From the NCBI RefSeq assembly GCF_003334355.1, contig NZ_QOWP01000021.1: a stretch of 64,000 nt of DNA. One strand, 5' to 3'. Within the stretch, counting starts at the first letter, position 1; each line of letters opens with the position of its first letter. The stretch comes from Escherichia coli (GTDB lineage Bacteria; Pseudomonadota; Gammaproteobacteria; Enterobacterales; Enterobacteriaceae). Both the position numbers and the translations under genes were made by a program. Of this stretch, positions 12,228 to 53,024 are shown in pieces. The notes beneath the pieces are model-generated. The model had not been told where the DNA came from, did no database searches, and worked only from the letters and a program-made list of their open reading frames with translations.

Positions 12228-13422
12228 TATTTACCCCCTCACGATCTAAAGCGCGCAGCAGCATTCCTTTCGAAATGATGCCGACATACTGTTGGTCCTC
12301 GTCGACCACGGGCACCGCACAGGGTGCCTGTCCGACATGAGAGAGCAACTCGCTAAGAGGCGTTTGTGCATCGACTGCTAACGGCGCATCAATCAGCGCC
12401 GCATCAAGACCTTGCTGCTGCGTTAACGCGGTTTTAAGCGAATCGATGGAGACTGCGCCGACAAACTTATTACCGCGTTCGATAACGTAGCCATATTCGC
12501 GATCTTCATCCTGCAATAATTTCAGTGCCGAACGTGGGCCGAAGCCAGGGGTTTTACGAATTAAGCCATTCGGTGTCCGGCGGGCAATATCTTTCGCACT
12601 GAATACCTGACTAATATCAACGCCACGGAAGAAGGTACGGACATAATCATTCGCCGGATTATTGAGAATTTCATCCGGTGTGCCGACCTGTACCACTTCA
12701 CCATTTTGCATAATGGCAATTCGGTCGCCAATACGCATGGCTTCATCAAGATCGTGGGAAATAAAGACAATGGTGCGCTGATGTTTCGCCTGTAATTTTA
12801 CCAGCTCATCCTGCATCTCGGTGCGAATTAATGGATCGAGCGCCGAGAAGGCTTCGTCCATTAATAATATATCCGGATTAATCGCTAACGCGCGGGCTAA
12901 TCCCACACGTTGACGCATCCCGCCAGAGAGTTCATCCGGGTAGCTGTGGGCATAATTTTCCAGCCCGACCTGACGCAGTGCATCAAGGGCTTTTTCCCGG
13001 CGTTCTTCGGCATTAATTCCGGCCAATTCCATACCGAACGCAGTATTGTCCAGCACGGTCATATGCGGCATTAAGGCAAAGGACTGGAAGACCATCGCAA
13101 TCTTTTTTCTGCGCACCTCACGGAGTTCGGCGTCGGATATTTTGGCAATATCCACACCATCAATCAGCACTTGCCCGCGGGTGGGTTCAATCAGGCGATT
13201 GAGAAGGCGTACCATTGTGGATTTACCCGAGCCGGATAATCCCATGATGACAAATATCTCGCCTTCTTCAATGGCCAGACTGGCGTCTTTTACGCCAAGC
13301 GATAGCCCAGTTTTTTCCAGAATTTGTTCTTTTGAAAGTCCTTGTTCGATATATTTGAACGCTCGCTGTGGATGCTCGCCAAATATTTTATAAAGATTTT
13401 TAATTTCTAATTTAATTGCCAT
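12220..13422 (-). CDS. proV: Glycine betaine/proline ABC transporter ATPase ProV
   Basis: Start at [16 protein letters not shown] (ATG 13420-13422); Walker [10 protein letters not shown]; tandem CBS domains; ORF track extends 91 codons upstream. Confidence 0.9.
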
Positions 13423-47171: not shown

Positions 47172-48113
47172 ATGGATGCACTGCATGTCGCGCTTGAAAA
47201 TCTGATTAGAGATGATGGTCAAACACTAAATAGTTATTTTAGTGAAGTTAAAGTTAATTCATTGATTGAAAATACAAATGCAACTTGTCATTTTCATTGC
47301 CTTAATCTTGATGGCAATGGACGTCCTCGGGTAGACGCGTTAATCCAATTCTTGAACGATAAAGTAGTTGATTATGCTATTCCAAGGAAAAAAATCAATG
47401 AGGCAGTGCAATATTTTAATGAAACACAATCAACAGCGAAAATAACAAAATTAGCAAATCAAGCAAAAAGATTATTTACTAGGCTTGCAAATAGTGGCGA
47501 AGGCGGTGAATTTATCCTTTTTTTATTTGCAGAGCAATTCCTTAGATTTCCACAAATTATTTGCAAAATGAGCCTGAAAACGAGTTCTCAAATGCATTAC
47601 CATGGTGCAGATGGAATACATATAGGCGTAGATAAAGATAATAAAAAATTATGTTTATACTGGGGCGAGTCTAAACTCTATTCCAGTCTGAGCAAAGGTA
47701 TTTCTGAGTGTATGGATAGTATAGCTCCATTACTTCAAAGTTCTATGGGAATAGAAGGCGCTGAGACACGTGATATGCAGTTGCTGGAGTCGCACTTAAA
47801 TGTTGATGATATAGAACTAGAACAAGCGTTGAAAAGATTCTTAGATCCTGATAGCCCGGATTTTAATAAATTGGAATACAGAGGAATATGCTTAGTTGGG
47901 TTTGATCTTAAAGATTATCCACAAGGGCCCAGTTCAATTGATATCAGTGAACTAGTTGCTTTGATTAATACTAAAGTCGGGAAATGGTCAACTAGTGTGC
48001 AAGGTGGTATAGTTAATAAAAAACTTGATCGCTTTGCTATGCATGTTTTTATTCTTCCTTTTCCTTCAGTAAAAGCATTTAGGGCTAGTTTAATTAAAGC
48101 ATTGGAGAGTTGA
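47172..48113 (+). CDS. Cargo gene 1: putative PD-(D/E)xK-like nuclease-fold protein, HamA/DUF1837-like candidate (313 aa)
   Basis: AT-rich ORF; E(110-113)...D147 (GADG)...E166-S-K168 (GESK, 47667-47675) arrangement; no P-loop; coupled to downstream helicase. Confidence 0.45.
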   Translation: MDALHVALENLIRDDGQTLNSYFSEVKVNSLIENTNATCHFHCLNLDGNGRPRVDALIQFLNDKVVDYAIPRKKINEAVQYFNETQSTAKITKLANQAKRLFTRLANSGEGGEFILFLFAEQFLRFPQIICKMSLKTSSQMHYHGADGIHIGVDKDNKKLCLYWGESKLYSSLSKGISECMDSIAPLLQSSMGIEGAETRDMQLLESHLNVDDIELEQALKRFLDPDSPDFNKLEYRGICLVGFDLKDYPQGPSSIDISELVALINTKVGKWSTSVQGGIVNKKLDRFAMHVFILPFPSVKAFRASLIKALES

Positions 48114-48114
48114 A

Positions 48115-50697
48115 ATGTCGTTGCGAGATTTATCTGGGTGGTTGATTAAGAATCAAGGATTCTTAAGAAAATATCAGGCATTAGTCGCTAACTCGATAAA
48201 AGATCAATTTCCAGAGTTAAAATCAGATGTAATCCCACAGATTAGTTCTGAGGATGTCGGCTATCTTTTAACATGTGCTAGTTCTTTGGCTTTCTCAAGT
48301 GATGAGAAATGCCAAGATGCAGCCTTAAGGATTGCACAGTATTGCTTATTGAATGAAAAAAGTGAAGCAAGAAAAGATAGTGCTGCATTAATTCTTGATT
48401 CATTATCTAATAATCCAGCAATACAACTTGCTGAAAATAGGGGGTATCTTAACCCTGATTTCGAAGAAAGATTACCCTTAAAGGCTCAGTTAGAACTAAC
48501 TAAAAGAAAAATTCTATATACAATTGAAATAGATGCTGATAAGCATATTTATGCTAATAGGTTTCAATCAGAGTTTTGGGATGCGGTACAAGAAAACTCA
48601 TGGGTTAGTGTCTCTGCTCCCACCTCTGTAGGAAAATCATTTATCCTGGAATCTTGGGTGGAGCAGTTTGTAAAAAGAAATAAGAATTGCTTAGTTATTT
48701 ATATCGTACCAACAAGGGCATTGATTTCAGAAGTATATTCTGAGTTGCAAAAACGTTTGGATCCTAATTTAACAAATATAGTTAATATTCAGACACTACC
48801 ATTGAGTAATGTATACCAGAGCGAAAAATCTAATGTCTTCATATTTACACAGGAAAGATTAAATTTATTCTACAATCATTTCTCACAAATTCCAAAGATA
48901 GACGTCTTAGTTGTTGATGAAGCACACAAGATCGGTGATGGTGGAAGAGGTGTTATTCTTCAACATGTAATTGAACTGACTTGTCTAAATAACCCTGATT
49001 CAAAAGTTATCTTTGCAAGTCCTTTCACCTTAAATCCTGAAATATTGCTCAGTGATGCTCCAATATTAAAAAACAAAAGAACTATAAAAAGTGACTATGT
49101 TACAGTTAATCAAAATTTAATATGGGTAGAACAAAAACCACGCAAGACCAAAGATTGGTTGATGTATTATTTTGCAAACGGTGAAAAACGCGAGTTAGGA
49201 AACTTTTCTTTAGAAAATGCACCATCTCCTGAAAGTAAAAGATTGCCTTTTGTAGCTCTTTGTTTAGGTAAGGGGGCTTCTGGTAACGTAGTTTACGTAA
49301 ATGGAGCCGCTGAAGCAGAATCTACTTCCAAGCTAATATCTGCAAGTATAGAAAATGAGACTGAGGATGAAGAAATTTTAGCTCTCGTTGAGCTTAGTGA
49401 GACAATTATACATAAAAATTTCGCATTAAATCGCACTCTAAAAAAGAGAGTCGCTTTTCATTATGGCAACATGCCTTTAATAATAAAGGGCGAGATTGAA
49501 CGATTGTTTAGTAAAGGTAAGATTGATTTTTTAATTTGTACCTCAACTTTAGTTGAGGGCGTAAACATGGCTTGTAAAAATATTTTTATAAGAGGCCCTA
49601 AAAAGGGTAATTCAACCCCGATGCGAGAAGAGGATTTTTGGAATCTTGCTGGCAGAGCTGGTCGTTGGGGAAAAGAATTCCAAGGTAATGTCATCTGCAT
49701 CGATAGCGACAATGAAAAAATTTGGAATGGAGAGCCTCCAAAAACCAAAAAAAATATATTTATAACTCGCGCCACGGATGCTATTTCCCATGACATGGAT
49801 AAGTTGGTTTCCTATATTTTTTCAGAGCATCATTTTGGTATGTCTGAGCGGAATCCTAATCTCCAGAGTCTATTTAGTTATTTATGTTCATCATTTTATT
49901 TTTATAATGGCTTGGATAATAATCCTTACATGGAAAAGTACAATATAAAAAATATCGATGTTTTAAATGAAGCAATATTTGATGTTTTTGATTCTTTAAC
50001 TTTTCCACACGAATTGGTTGTGCGGCATCCTGGTATAAGCCCGCTTTTAATGCAAAACCTTTGGGATAGATTTTCGCGGGATACAAACAAACCTGTAGAG
50101 AGATTACTGCTTTCTGAACCTGGTAGTAATGATGCGTTAGATTCATATGTATCCGCATTCTCTAGAATTAGTGATACTCTGAGTAAGAAGCTAGGTTATA
50201 ATTCAAAAGGAGCTTACGTACAGGCCTTGCTAGTTTCCAAGTGGATGAAAGGTTATCCCCTAGCAAGATTGATCTCGGATAGAATAAGATATAACAAAAA
50301 GAAAAATATTGTTTTCAAAGAAGCGACTTTAATACGAGGGGTTATGAAGGATGTTGAAGAGATCGCTCGCTATCAAGCTCCAAGGCTTTTAGGATGTTAT
50401 AATGATTTATTAAAAAGCTTTTATCTTTCGATAGATCGCACAGACTTAGCAAAAGATGTTGAAGATATCGGTGTTTATTTAGAACTAGGTGTAAGTTTAA
50501 AAACTCAGATTTCACTAATAGGGCTTGGCTTTTCAAGAACTGCTGCTGTAATGATTTCAGAGCTTATTCCTAATGATAGTTTAGATGAGGAAGAATGCAT
50601 TAATTGGATTAAGGACAATAAAGTTGACATGGAAGAACTGCCACAATTAGTTCAAAACGAAATACATAATATATTTCGTAACTTTTGGGTACAATAG
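48115..50697 (+). CDS. Cargo gene 2: SF2 DEAH-box helicase with about 340-aa C-terminal extension, HamB-like candidate (860 aa)
   Basis: Walker A APTSVGKS (GKS 48631-48639), DEAH (48916-48927), TSTLVEGVN, motif VI AGRAGR (49648-49665); ATG 1 nt after upstream stop. Confidence 0.6.
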   Translation: MSLRDLSGWLIKNQGFLRKYQALVANSIKDQFPELKSDVIPQISSEDVGYLLTCASSLAFSSDEKCQDAALRIAQYCLLNEKSEARKDSAALILDSLSNNPAIQLAENRGYLNPDFEERLPLKAQLELTKRKILYTIEIDADKHIYANRFQSEFWDAVQENSWVSVSAPTSVGKSFILESWVEQFVKRNKNCLVIYIVPTRALISEVYSELQKRLDPNLTNIVNIQTLPLSNVYQSEKSNVFIFTQERLNLFYNHFSQIPKIDVLVVDEAHKIGDGGRGVILQHVIELTCLNNPDSKVIFASPFTLNPEILLSDAPILKNKRTIKSDYVTVNQNLIWVEQKPRKTKDWLMYYFANGEKRELGNFSLENAPSPESKRLPFVALCLGKGASGNVVYVNGAAEAESTSKLISASIENETEDEEILALVELSETIIHKNFALNRTLKKRVAFHYGNMPLIIKGEIERLFSKGKIDFLICTSTLVEGVNMACKNIFIRGPKKGNSTPMREEDFWNLAGRAGRWGKEFQGNVICIDSDNEKIWNGEPPKTKKNIFITRATDAISHDMDKLVSYIFSEHHFGMSERNPNLQSLFSYLCSSFYFYNGLDNNPYMEKYNIKNIDVLNEAIFDVFDSLTFPHELVVRHPGISPLLMQNLWDRFSRDTNKPVERLLLSEPGSNDALDSYVSAFSRISDTLSKKLGYNSKGAYVQALLVSKWMKGYPLARLISDRIRYNKKKNIVFKEATLIRGVMKDVEEIARYQAPRLLGCYNDLLKSFYLSIDRTDLAKDVEDIGVYLELGVSLKTQISLIGLGFSRTAAVMISELIPNDSLDEEECINWIKDNKVDMEELPQLVQNEIHNIFRNFWVQ

Positions 50698-50789
50698 TCT
50701 TATTTAGACGATTTTTTAAACAATCAATAGAGAAGTTTTTGAATTTTATCATTCTTCCAGTAACAAAAACTTCTCTTTTATAACACCGC

Positions 50790-51248
50790 TCAGGCTATTC
50801 CAGAATAGGCTTTGCTTACTTCACTATGCCTTGTGCCGCAATGCCTCAAAATAACAAGGCCATGTTGCAGTAACGCCTCACTACGTTCAGGTTCAAACCA
50901 TTTCCCGTTAAATTTTCCTCCGTGAAAAAGATTGTTTCTTACACGGCGGATTAACAAAAAAAGAAATTTTGCTAAATCTTTTTCTTGTGGTAAAGAATCA
51001 TCCCAAACTAAAGAGTCATCTTCTATGATTTGTTTTTTGGGTGGGTGTTCTTTAAAGTAGGTGATAGCAGCAATTAGCTCTGGATCAGTTGTGTTATTTA
51101 TGATTTCAGAAACTTGCTTTGCATACTCATCCCAGTTCGCTTTAGCATCTTTTATTTTATGATGAAGTCCACATGCCTTAAGGCAATATTCGTAACGTGA
51201 AAACTCTCTAAAGAATTCATAACATAAATTATCTAGATTATTCTCCAT
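50790..51248 (-). CDS. Hypothetical protein (152 aa), AT-rich cargo ORF between helicase and integrase
   Basis: Clean ORF convergent with the helicase operon; no recognisable motifs. Confidence 0.45.
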   Translation of the reverse strand: MENNLDNLCYEFFREFSRYEYCLKACGLHHKIKDAKANWDEYAKQVSEIINNTTDPELIAAITYFKEHPPKKQIIEDDSLVWDDSLPQEKDLAKFLFLLIRRVRNNLFHGGKFNGKWFEPERSEALLQHGLVILRHCGTRHSEVSKAYSGIA

Positions 51249-51277
51249 GAACTATATCTCCATGTATAACAAGTTAA

Positions 51278-52477
51278 CTAATATTGATTGCGCTCGTACA
51301 CTTTTTGGCCCCACCAATTCATAAGTCCTATTCGTTGCTCAAGGTAAGTTGAACGATTATATGCTCTGCGCACTTCATTTTTATCACTATGTGCAAGAGC
51401 AGCCTCAATTACATCTGCATTAAAACCCGCTTCATTTAATGCGGTGCTGGCAATTGAACGCAATCCATGAGCAACCAATCTACCACCAAATCCAATCCTT
51501 TTTAAAGCAGCATTTGCCGTCTGGCTATTCATTGGTTGCTTTGGGTCATTCCGACTCGGGAAAACATGTTCACGATGGGCACTGATTAGCTTCATCACAT
51601 CAAGAATCTCTAATGCCTGAGGAGATAGAGGGACTATGTGTTCCCGCTTAGCCTTCATTCGTTCAGCTGGGATAGTCCAGAGCTTTGCATCGAGATCGAG
51701 CTCAGCCCACCTAGCACCGGAAGCCTCAGAAGGACGAACTAGAGTCAGGAGTTGCCACTCAATGAGGCAGCGAGTCGGAACAGACAAATTTGACATGACG
51801 AGAGAACGCATCAGCATAGGCAATTCTTCTGGGCGCAACGTAGGCATATTTTGTTTTTTTGGCTTCTCAAAGGCCATTCCAATGCCTGATGCTGGATTGG
51901 CATCAATAAGACCAGTATTTACGGCATAAATCATTATCTCGTTAACACGCTGCACCAACCGGCGCACCGTCTCCAGCGCCCCACGAGCTTTGATCGGTTC
52001 AAGGGCTTCAACCAGTGTTCGGGCTTTGATTTGCTGGACAGGGATCTCCCCGATGGTGGGGAATACGTCTTTTTCCAGTGAACGCCATATATCTTTAGCG
52101 TAATCATGGGTAACGCTTTTGCTTTTGAGCTGGAACCAGTTAGCGGCGACCGTCGAAAAAATACTGTCCAGAGCGATTTGCTGCTGTTCCTCTGCAACTT
52201 CAGCTTGAATTTGCGGGTCGATTCCGTTGGCTAATAGGGCAAGGTAATCTGCTCTTAACCCTCGGGCATCAGCAAGAGAAAGGGCAGGAAAAGCACCAAG
52301 TCCCATCATAGTCCGCTGTTTTGTTGCTGGGCGTTGATAGCGAAAGCGCCAGAGTTTCTTGCCGCTAGTTTTCACTATCAGGAAAAGCCCATCGCCATCA
52401 TGCAGCGTTAGATCCTTCTCTAACGCTTTCGCGCGCAGAACTTCGGTGTTGGTCAGGGGGCGTGTTGTCCGTGCCAC
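51278..52477 (-). CDS. int: P4-type tyrosine integrase
   Basis: 399-aa ORF next to tmRNA 3' end; C-terminal catalytic region with HGLRSIAST and RAYNRSTY (His/Arg/Tyr). Confidence 0.85.
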   Translation of the reverse strand: MARTTRPLTNTEVLRAKALEKDLTLHDGDGLFLIVKTSGKKLWRFRYQRPATKQRTMMGLGAFPALSLADARGLRADYLALLANGIDPQIQAEVAEEQQQIALDSIFSTVAANWFQLKSKSVTHDYAKDIWRSLEKDVFPTIGEIPVQQIKARTLVEALEPIKARGALETVRRLVQRVNEIMIYAVNTGLIDANPASGIGMAFEKPKKQNMPTLRPEELPMLMRSLVMSNLSVPTRCLIEWQLLTLVRPSEASGARWAELDLDAKLWTIPAERMKAKREHIVPLSPQALEILDVMKLISAHREHVFPSRNDPKQPMNSQTANAALKRIGFGGRLVAHGLRSIASTALNEAGFNADVIEAALAHSDKNEVRRAYNRSTYLEQRIGLMNWWGQKVYERNQY

Positions 52478-52661: not shown

Positions 52662-53024
52662 TGGTGGAGCTGGCGGGAGTTGAACCCGCGTCCGAAATTC
52701 CTACATCCTCGGTACTACATGCTTAGTCAGTCTTTACATTCGCTTGCCAGCTGCGGACGGACACGCCACTAACAAACTAGCCTGATTAAGTTTTAACGCT
52801 TCAACCCCAGGCAGGGCTTCCACGCGATCTCTTTTGGGTTTGACCTCTCTTGATCCCCGTCCTAAGAGCGGAGGCTAGGGAGAGAGGGCTCTAAGCAGGT
52901 TATTAAGCTGCTAAAGCGTAGTTTTCGTCGTTTGCGACTATTTTTTGCGGCTTTTTACGAGGCCAACCGCCCCTCGGCATGCACCTTGGGTTTCGCAAAT
53001 CCCGTCGAATCCAGAATCAGCCCC
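52662..53024 (-). ncRNA. ssrA: tmRNA (SsrA), 363 nt
   Basis: Reverse complement begins GGGGCTGATTCTGGATTCGACGGG and ends ...GGGTTCAACTCCCGCCAGCTCCACCA; tag ORF region present. Confidence 0.95.

Follow-up and report, generated by a model that had tools for sequence, protein, structure and literature searches.

A probable canonical type I Hachiman system in the cargo slot of an ssrA-integrated P4-like satellite of Escherichia coli

Results

The window, by which we mean the whole 64,000-nucleotide stretch of E. coli DNA that was analysed, contains a P4-like satellite that is integrated at ssrA and carries a pair of genes, hamA and hamB. The satellite genes run in the order primase-helicase, Icd-like, AlpA-type HTH, Sid/Psu-like, Psu, Ogr/Delta, cargo and P4-type integrase, and the integrase end is adjoined by the tmRNA (52662-53024, minus strand) and smpB. 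The P4-type tyrosine integrase gene (int, 51278..52477, minus strand; phrog_1 integrase, 4e-68) bounds the cargo slot and adjoins ssrA; in orthologous loci its product contains the Arm-DNA-bind_3, Phage_int_M and Phage_integrase domains. This gene order, the integrase and the ssrA/smpB neighbourhood bear out the P4-type satellite context that the original prediction had proposed from the sequence. The tmRNA locus is among the established integration hotspots of P4-like satellites, and Hachiman has been reported as cargo of the P4 hotspot, where it is listed for P4 and not for P2. For the putative cos-like site of the original prediction, a search with the canonical P2/P4 cos core gave no match within 3 mismatches, the best local match being 13/19 at 46956. 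In the phage collection, blastn found nothing resembling the upstream delta/'cos' region, and the hamAB locus had no match among deposited phage and satellite genomes.

The cargo occupies an AT-rich block (~46990-51277), the left edge of which is marked by a fall in GC from ~0.51 to ~0.33 at ~46990-47000. The hamA gene has a GC content of 0.351 and hamB one of 0.346, versus 0.484 for both int and the whole window, and the GC3 of the pair is 0.24-0.27 versus 0.44 for int, in agreement with the AT-richness that had been noticed for the two genes. The earlier description of a two-gene cargo is correct as regards the coordinates of hamA and hamB, which are exact, but has to be extended by a third gene, ORF152. 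All three cargo genes have a GC content of 0.35-0.36.

The hamA gene (47172..48113, plus strand) lies directly upstream of hamB (48115..50697, plus strand) in one operon. The TGA stop codon of hamA (48111-48113) is separated by a 1-nt gap from the ATG of hamB (48115), which is preceded by GGAGAG, so that the two coupled plus-strand genes are found exactly as they had been predicted. This junction implies co-expression of hamA and hamB, and the same arrangement is also present in the related loci L002-5, L011 and L017. The AT-rich region upstream of hamA (46990..47171, plus strand) contains a candidate sigma-70 promoter, TTGCAA-16-TATATT at 47105-47132, which is a consensus match only; in our promoter/terminator consensus scan such sites were not enriched over shuffles. 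Between the convergent hamB and ORF152, a perfect 13-bp inverted repeat with a 22-nt loop (AGAGAAGTTTTTG ... CAAAAACTTCTCT, 50729..50776) was spotted by eye, and its folding was then confirmed, with energies of -13.7 kcal/mol on the plus strand and -15.2 kcal/mol on the minus strand. A short run of T (TTTT when read on the plus strand) comes after it, and we regard the hairpin as a candidate bidirectional terminator.

The 313-aa HamA matches the PADLOC profile HamA1 (PDLC00163) over residues 2-312 (profile positions 3-312 of 314; E 1.7e-135) and the Pfam family HamA (PF08878, DUF1837) over model positions 2-230 of 230 (4.4e-61). It consists of a single HamA domain with no further Pfam domain, and NCBIfam has no model for it. 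The motifs GEGGEF, GADG and GESK are located at residues 109-114, 145-148 and 165-168, and G109, E110, G112, E113, D147, E166, S167 and K168 are invariant among 38 homologs of 44-84% identity. The E...D...ExK nuclease motif previously suggested for gene 1 is thereby substantiated as E110/E113, D147 and E166-x-K168, and these five residues are candidates for the catalytic residues of a predicted PD-(D/E)xK-type nuclease. Their spacing (110, 113, 147, 166, 168) closely parallels that of D90, E93, D127, E147 and K149, which mutagenesis identified as essential in Streptococcus thermophilus HamA (PMC13064477). The motif also fits the D-E(x)K of ECOR31 HamA, mutated as E138A/K140A (PMC12278908), and the site of DEC14B HamA, mutated as E150A/K152A (PMC11914072).

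When the AF2 model of HamA (pLDDT 85.7, pTM 0.87) was compared with the PDB by Foldseek, the confident matches were solved HamA chains only, namely 8vxy_A, 8vx9_A and 8zue_A (probability 1.0, E <= 1e-5, TM 0.45-0.57). The structural comparison that had been advised for gene 1 thus came out in favour of HamA. Structure prediction and Foldseek were needed to tie the protein to these chains because sequence searches fell short: phmmer against the PDB found nothing even at E <= 10, and the profile of 38 HamA sequences reached solely the AbpA-type chains 9wh1_A and 8zue_A, both weakly.

HamB, a Ski2/Hel308-like SF2 helicase of 860 aa, matches the PADLOC profile HamB1 (PDLC00186) over residues 1-856 (profile positions 1-860 of 864; E 0, 1135 bits). 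With an open frame of 860 codons in DNA of 35% GC, hamB cannot have arisen as an ORF by chance. Pfam assigns DEAD and Helicase_C to the protein, with a weak ResIII match. Walker A (APTSVGKS, 168-175, with GKS at 173-175 and K174), the DEAH box (268-271), TSTLVEGVN (476-484) and motif VI (AGRAGR, 512-517) are all intact, so that every HamA and HamB motif quoted earlier is present. The C-terminal part of gene 2, formerly described as a domain of unknown function, turns out to belong to the conserved HamB architecture, as the coverage of the HamB1 profile from 1 to 860 demonstrates. Among solved structures, the 853-aa HamB-type chain 9wh1_B aligns with residues 115-815 (E 3.9e-58), and the nearest non-HamB structures are Ski2, Hel308 and Brr2. 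The NCBIfam matches are of the Hel308 type only, and assignment to such a family was rejected.

The likeness of HamB to the Hel308/Ski2 repair helicases, its weak ResIII match and a restriction-endonuclease-like fold of HamA could be taken to mean that the pair serves not defence but the satellite's own replication, recombination or helper exploitation as a helicase-nuclease, or is part of a restriction-modification system. However, the NCBIfam helicase scores of 62-81 bits are far under the curated cut-offs of 887-1216, and therefore indicate similarity at the superfamily level only. The restriction endonucleases, which come next in the Foldseek list (ranks 4-13), do not reach significance (E >= 0.02, probability <= 0.28); the HamA chains, by contrast, match with probability 1.0. 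No methyltransferase is present in the ORF list of the cargo block. Moreover, hamAB resides in the variable cargo slot rather than amid the conserved core of P4, and this slot holds a different allele in other satellites whose integrase is closely related. We find such a non-defence function scarcely credible, and consider the pair as Hachiman in what follows.

ORF152 (50790..51248, minus strand) encodes a 152-aa stand-alone protein. The gene follows int, which has the same orientation, after 29 bp and has a GGAG ribosome-binding site. It yields no Pfam match even at E <= 10 and none in PADLOC or NCBIfam, it has no match among solved structures, and it corresponds to phrog_19013, the function of which is listed as unknown in that database. 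The AF2 model (pLDDT 89.8) matches AFDB50 entries with TM 0.8-0.9 that are automatically labelled as Apea-like HEPN, RiboL-PSP-HEPN and pEK499-p136 HEPN, and an Rx4H motif (R104-N-N-L-F-H109) is invariant in 40 homologs. The predicted all-alpha fold, together with a motif of the Rx4-6H type, places ORF152 in the HEPN superfamily.

Several observations might associate ORF152 with Hachiman as a third component, either as a partner of HamAB acting as a second, RNA-targeting effector or as a regulator of HamAB. The three genes share one AT-rich block, and in E. coli the HEPN gene occurs at high identity beside this hamAB only (L001, L018-L021). The trio recurs in satellites of Raoultella/Enterobacter (L002-5) and in a more diverged relative (L011), with identities of 83% for HamB and 67% for the HEPN protein. 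Accessory modules of Hachiman, PezAT and AbiJ, have also been documented, and PezAT modulates Hachiman in Streptococcus (PMC13064477). On the other hand, L017, a P4-like satellite at ssrA, carries HamAB of the same subclade (63% aa identity) in the identical slot with no HEPN gene, its hamB lying 22 bp from int. All of the HEPN homologs below 67% identity with usable flanks that we examined are without HamA or HamB within 6-7 kb, and they are found in unrelated islands or prophages (L006-9, L012-16, L022, L024-29). In addition, ORF152 is convergent to hamAB, is separated from it by the hairpin and is co-oriented with int. Because HamAB of the same subclade exists without ORF152 and the ORF152 family occurs mostly without HamAB, the three-gene variant was rejected as the main reading, and we hold it to be very improbable. 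ORF152 is not a defining component of Hachiman and has no obligate link to it. It could instead be a single-gene defence or toxin, a so far uncharacterised HEPN RNase that occupies integrase-adjacent cargo slots of mobile elements and is stacked with Hachiman here, a tentative proposal to which we attach low probability; the version in which ORF152 modulates Hachiman seems to be less likely than this one.

Of 5,426 complete E. coli genomes, 20 contain the hamAB locus at 99.8% identity and 7 a variant of ~67% identity. In three E. coli strains IS5 is inserted in hamB, implying that an intact locus is not maintained in every case. The hamAB-ORF152-int block is 91-98% identical between satellites that share only 44-56% identity in Psu and Delta. 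The sharing of this int-proximal block agrees with the exchange of modules that P4-like satellites are already known to undergo.

Discussion

We conclude with high confidence that hamA and hamB constitute a canonical type I Hachiman system in the P4-like satellite hotspot at ssrA, the mechanism of which is deduced by homology. The Hachiman hypothesis of the original prediction is upheld by the full-length PADLOC HamA1 and HamB1 matches and by Pfam PF08878, the profile search that had been proposed as a check having placed both proteins under Hachiman models. By sequence, the pair is of the PADLOC class HamA1/HamB1 and would be type I-A in the classification by Cui et al., since its HamA is composed of DUF1837 only and retains the conserved D-(D/E)xK residues. 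AbpAB, or type I-B, does not describe a HamA of 313 aa with a single domain and an intact D-ExK site.

The alternative of an undescribed system was rejected because the standard HamA1 and HamB1 profiles match end to end. For the same reason the suggestion of a divergent or undescribed variant finds no support; the RefSeq records WP_016809718 and WP_016809719 are already named HamA/DUF1837 and DEAD/DEAH helicase. The pair is thus already catalogued and not a new finding, and it leaves no space for a novel reading. Our literature search returned no report of this exact hamAB allele being tested.

The mechanism we propose is drawn by homology from the characterised Hachiman systems (PMC12278908, PMC11914072, PMC13064477). 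HamA and HamB would form a heterodimer, in which HamB surveys DNA as a Ski2/Hel308-like SF2 helicase. The trigger may come when HamB, in the course of phage infection, engages DNA that is damaged or ssDNA with a free 3' end, and the binding and hydrolysis of ATP by HamB, through Walker A K174 and the DEAH box, would license the nuclease of HamA. The putative nuclease residues are D147, E166 and K168, with E110 and E113 as presumed helpers. [quoted passage not shown] For the present allele, phage protection and enzymatic activity are both predicted from this homology.

The published mechanisms of Hachiman disagree with each other as to whether HamA is released or is active only in the complex. 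Tuck et al. proposed a release of HamA from HamB (PMC12278908), whereas Cui et al. (PMC11914072) and Tian et al. found HamA to be active within the HamAB complex only.

As one more case of a well-characterised and widespread defence, and one that PADLOC, Pfam and RefSeq already recognise, hamAB carries little weight beyond correct annotation. The hamAB-ORF152-int block, shared across satellites with differing psu/delta, illustrates modular cargo exchange, and the orphan HEPN gene ORF152 is a cheap candidate for defence activity. The subclade with an 860-aa HamB and a 313-aa HamA is rare in E. coli and is without a solved structure of its own.

Relation to characterised systems

The locus shows no substantive difference from the P4-like defence hotspot (psu/delta-int): the cargo sits in the same slot, from Ogr/Delta to the integrase, and its GC is likewise below that of the backbone. 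Hachiman has been reported in >5% of prokaryotic genomes. The characterised systems require HamA and HamB only (PMC11914072, PMC13064477, PMC12278908).

Protection against dsDNA phages, T4 and T7 among them, has been shown for the type I-A Hachiman of E. coli DEC14B. Its nuclease, which is non-specific, acts only when HamA and HamB are in complex and is lost with E150A/K152A, and defence is lost with a Walker A mutation (PMC11914072). The two-gene layout of the present locus is the same: the hamA product is DUF1837-only and retains its (D/E)xK site, and an SF2 HamB comes after it. The corresponding positions are E150/K152 of HamA and Walker A 272-274 of HamB in DEC14B, and E166/K168 and 173-175 here. 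Since the numbering differs, DEC14B HamB seems to have an N-terminal region that is longer by ~100 residues, as compared by residue numbering, and to belong to a different subclade.

The HamA fold of ECOR31 (PMC12278908; PDB 8VX9, 8VXA, 8VXC, 8VXY) is the top Foldseek match with probability 1.0, and in both systems HamA bears the D-E(x)K nuclease motif and HamB is Ski2-like, with a DExH box. Sensing of DNA damage or 3'-ssDNA that leads to abortive infection has been modelled for ECOR31 (PMC12278908). By sequence, the present pair stands far from the two best-studied Hachiman systems. The HamB of ECOR31 has 1174 aa with a C-terminal OB-like domain versus 860 aa here, and the similarity is confined to RecA2 (residues 430-528, E 5e-12). 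ECOR31 HamA has 245-259 aa and is 13-14% identical in the structural alignment (TM 0.45-0.57), and phmmer and profile searches with our HamA did not detect it by sequence. Tian et al. place ECOR31 in another type, III-A (PMC13064477).

The closest solved relative of HamB is 9wh1_B, the complex of which is considered here together with AbpAB/type I-B (E. coli K-12, 8ZUE); a literature search for the paper describing PDB 9WH1 gave spurious matches only. The HamA chains 9wh1_A and 8zue_A are 528-565 aa long and have an additional domain at the N terminus, which is Cap4-like in the case of AbpA, whereas HamA here is DUF1837-only. The catalytic residues are missing from the DUF1837 of these proteins, conservation being absent in 9wh1_A where it aligns with D147, E166 and K168, whereas our HamA has the full catalytic set. 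Since 9wh1 pairs a similar HamB with a catalytically deficient AbpA-type HamA, the details of the activation of HamA by HamB could differ here. With its HamB close to the AbpB-type helicases and a catalytically intact DUF1837-only HamA, the present subclade offers a useful comparison for how HamB licenses HamA.

Identity of the gene pair

The AT-rich cargo contains two plus-strand ORFs, hamA (47172..48113, 313 aa) and hamB (48115..50697, 860 aa), placed exactly as in the original prediction. The two genes are coupled, with a single base between the hamA TGA (48111-48113) and the hamB ATG (48115), and GGAGAG lies just upstream of the hamB start. All of the motifs quoted for the pair were found where implied: GEGGEF (109-114), GADG (145-148) and GESK (165-168) within residues 109-168 of HamA, and APTSVGKS (168-175, containing K174), DEAH (268-271), TSTLVEGVN (476-484) and AGRAGR (512-517) within residues 168-517 of HamB. 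The predicted AT-richness is also borne out, as GC is 0.35 in hamA/hamB versus 0.48 in the integrase gene and in the whole window, GC3 is 0.24-0.27 versus 0.44 in the integrase gene, and the composition shift at ~46990 is sharp.

Profile HMM searches against Pfam (DUF1837 and helicase families) and PADLOC, as had been proposed for checking the Hachiman hypothesis, support it by full-length matches of both proteins to Hachiman models. HamA matches PADLOC HamA1 (PDLC00163) end to end (E 1.7e-135), together with 19 more HamA models, and Pfam HamA/DUF1837 (PF08878) at 4.4e-61. HamB contains the Pfam DEAD and Helicase_C domains and matches PADLOC HamB1 (PDLC00186) over residues 1-856 (E 0, 1135 bits). 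Because this match spans nearly the entire protein, the 340-aa C-terminal domain, previously regarded as of unknown function, is a conserved part of HamB. The only NCBIfam matches of HamB were of Hel308 type and far sub-threshold, implying that the protein belongs to the Ski2/Hel308 branch of SF2, a placement that has already been published for HamB (PMC12278908).

Catalytic residues and fold of HamA

Across 38 aligned HamA homologs (44-84% identity), the invariant residues G109, E110, G112, E113, D147, E166, S167 and K168 fall exactly in the three motifs that had been singled out as nuclease-like. Their spacing (110/113/147/166/168) closely parallels D90/E93/D127/E147/K149 of S. thermophilus HamA, in which alanine at any one of these positions abolishes defence (PMC13064477). 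Likewise, the D-E(x)K triad has its counterparts in two published double mutants, E138A/K140A of ECOR31 (PMC12278908) and E150A/K152A of DEC14B (PMC11914072).

The AlphaFold2 model of HamA is confident (pLDDT 85.7, pTM 0.87). In the suggested comparison with Cap4 and HamA folds, its only significant PDB matches were the HamA chains 8vxy_A and 8vx9_A (ECOR31 HamA) and 8zue_A (K-12 AbpA), with probability 1.0 each; restriction endonucleases and Cap4 rank next, with non-significant scores.

Satellite context and distribution

The P4-type satellite setting was confirmed. The element reads primase-helicase, DUF5375, Icd-like, AlpA-type HTH, Sid/Psu-like, Psu, Ogr/Delta, cargo and P4-type integrase, adjoining the tmRNA gene (52662-53024), and the flanking core genes smpB, ratA, yfjF, bamE and recN are 100% identical to those of E. 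coli. The mechanically called Ogr/Delta-like ORF (46372-46746, 124 aa) starts inside psu, whereas the RefSeq call is 90 aa (12475-12747 of comparison locus L001); translation probably begins at an ATG further downstream, directly after the psu stop. A search for the canonical P2/P4 cos core found no site within 3 mismatches (best local match 13/19), and the region of the putative cos-like site gave no match to the phage collection.

Of 5,426 complete E. coli genomes, 20 carry this 4.3-kb locus (99.8% identity), and a variant ~67% identical at the DNA level occurs in 7 others. Near-identical proteins are found in Enterobacter, Raoultella and other Enterobacteriaceae. In three E. coli strains (AH04, AH02 and CT01), hamB is split by an IS5-family insertion (IS5-like ISKpn26), which in AH04 (L018 2444-6225) leaves fragments of 140 aa and 738 aa; the split copy is a naturally inactivated version of the same Hachiman locus. 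When window 45900-52477 is compared with Raoultella/Enterobacter satellites (L002-L005), the int-ORF152-hamB-hamA block shares 91-98% protein identity, whereas the neighboring Psu and Delta are only 44% and 56% identical. Evidently, the cargo next to int has travelled between dissimilar satellite backbones. In E. coli PF9285 (L017, 1589-4738), an ssrA satellite encoding a 63%-identical HamAB, psu is interrupted by the IS21-family ISEc12; this satellite is probably defective, with its Hachiman cargo intact.

The alternative reading of the pair as an undescribed antiphage system is rejected. Its proteins (WP_016809718, WP_016809719) are already annotated as "HamA C-terminal domain-containing protein" or "DUF1837 domain-containing protein" and "DEAD/DEAH box helicase". 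A published survey covering P4 and P2 elements in their thousands listed Hachiman among the systems in P4 but not P2, with most P4 defences located between int and Psu-Delta-Sid, and the tmRNA locus is a documented hotspot for integration of P4-like satellites. Given this prior annotation, distribution and niche, nothing is new about the HamAB pair: the observation is confirmed, and the locus is Hachiman, a known kind of system in a described niche.

A HEPN-fold gene beside hamAB

The only residual curiosity at the locus is the orphan HEPN gene ORF152 (50790..51248, minus strand, 152 aa), which lies within the AT-rich block (GC 0.36). It shares the strand of int, from which it lies 29 bp downstream, has a GGAG RBS and is convergent with hamB. 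Between hamB and ORF152, 13-bp arms at 50729-50741 and 50764-50776 form a perfect inverted repeat around a 22-nt loop. This hairpin probably terminates transcription in both directions; its AT-rich stem explains why the scan for consensus terminators did not pick it up.

ORF152 had no match in Pfam, PADLOC or NCBIfam, and the structure search found no corresponding solved structure. Its family comprises at least 696 proteins; R104-N-N-L-F-H109, the Rx4H hallmark of HEPN, is invariant in 40 homologs, and the confident model of ORF152 (pLDDT 89.8) aligns with TM 0.8-0.9 to AFDB entries that carry Apea-like or RiboL-PSP HEPN labels.

The gene accompanies hamAB in near-identical satellites and one diverged relative (L002-5, L011, L018-21). 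The PF9285 satellite carries same-subclade HamAB without it, and no HamA or HamB was found within 6-7 kb of any fetched ORF152 homolog at 29-66% identity with usable flanking DNA, these homologs residing in unrelated islands or prophages. Therefore, ORF152 is not an obligate Hachiman partner. Members of the family turn up repeatedly beside integrases and in regions resembling defence islands, whether or not Hachiman is there. In our reading, ORF152 is cargo independent of Hachiman; it may encode a small, perhaps undescribed, HEPN RNase that serves as a toxin or in defence.

In Lelliottia (L009 6262-7480, L010 1-1159), a 66%-identical homolog and an unannotated ORF of 229-249 aa overlap at the stop codon of the latter, immediately 3' of an Ogr/Delta gene, pointing to a two-gene module in a further P2/P4-type slot. 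In icd-integrated E. coli prophages (L012-14), a 51%-identical homolog lies between unknown 212-aa and 425-aa ORFs.

Comparison with known Hachiman systems

By homology to characterized systems, HamA and HamB would form a heterodimer in which HamB surveys DNA. Upon meeting damaged DNA or 3' ssDNA, HamB would drive ATP-dependent activation of the HamA nuclease, and the resulting indiscriminate DNA degradation would abort the infection. Published accounts disagree on the activation step: Tuck et al. (PMC12278908) propose that HamA is freed from HamB, whereas Cui et al. (PMC11914072) and Tian et al. (PMC13064477) report nuclease activity only as the HamAB complex.

The ECOR31 system is distant in sequence, as its HamB aligns with the present one only over RecA2 (E 5e-12) and its HamA was not detected from the present HamA by sequence searches. 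Among solved helicases, the nearest to this HamB is 9wh1_B (853 aa; E 3.9e-58, residues 115-815). In 9wh1, 9whk and 9whu, chain B is deposited as "DNA polymerase theta (Helicase domain only)", a name that seems automatic or misleading for a helicase of the HamB/AbpB kind, and chain A as [quoted passage not shown]; our literature search found no paper describing 9wh1. Chain A of 9wh1 is a 528-aa AbpA-type HamA that does not conserve D147, E166 and K168 at the aligned positions. The present locus therefore joins an AbpB-like short HamB to a DUF1837-only HamA with intact catalytic residues. Such a pairing agrees with "type I-A" of Cui et al. (PMC11914072), the majority class, to which 86% of HamA sequences belong.
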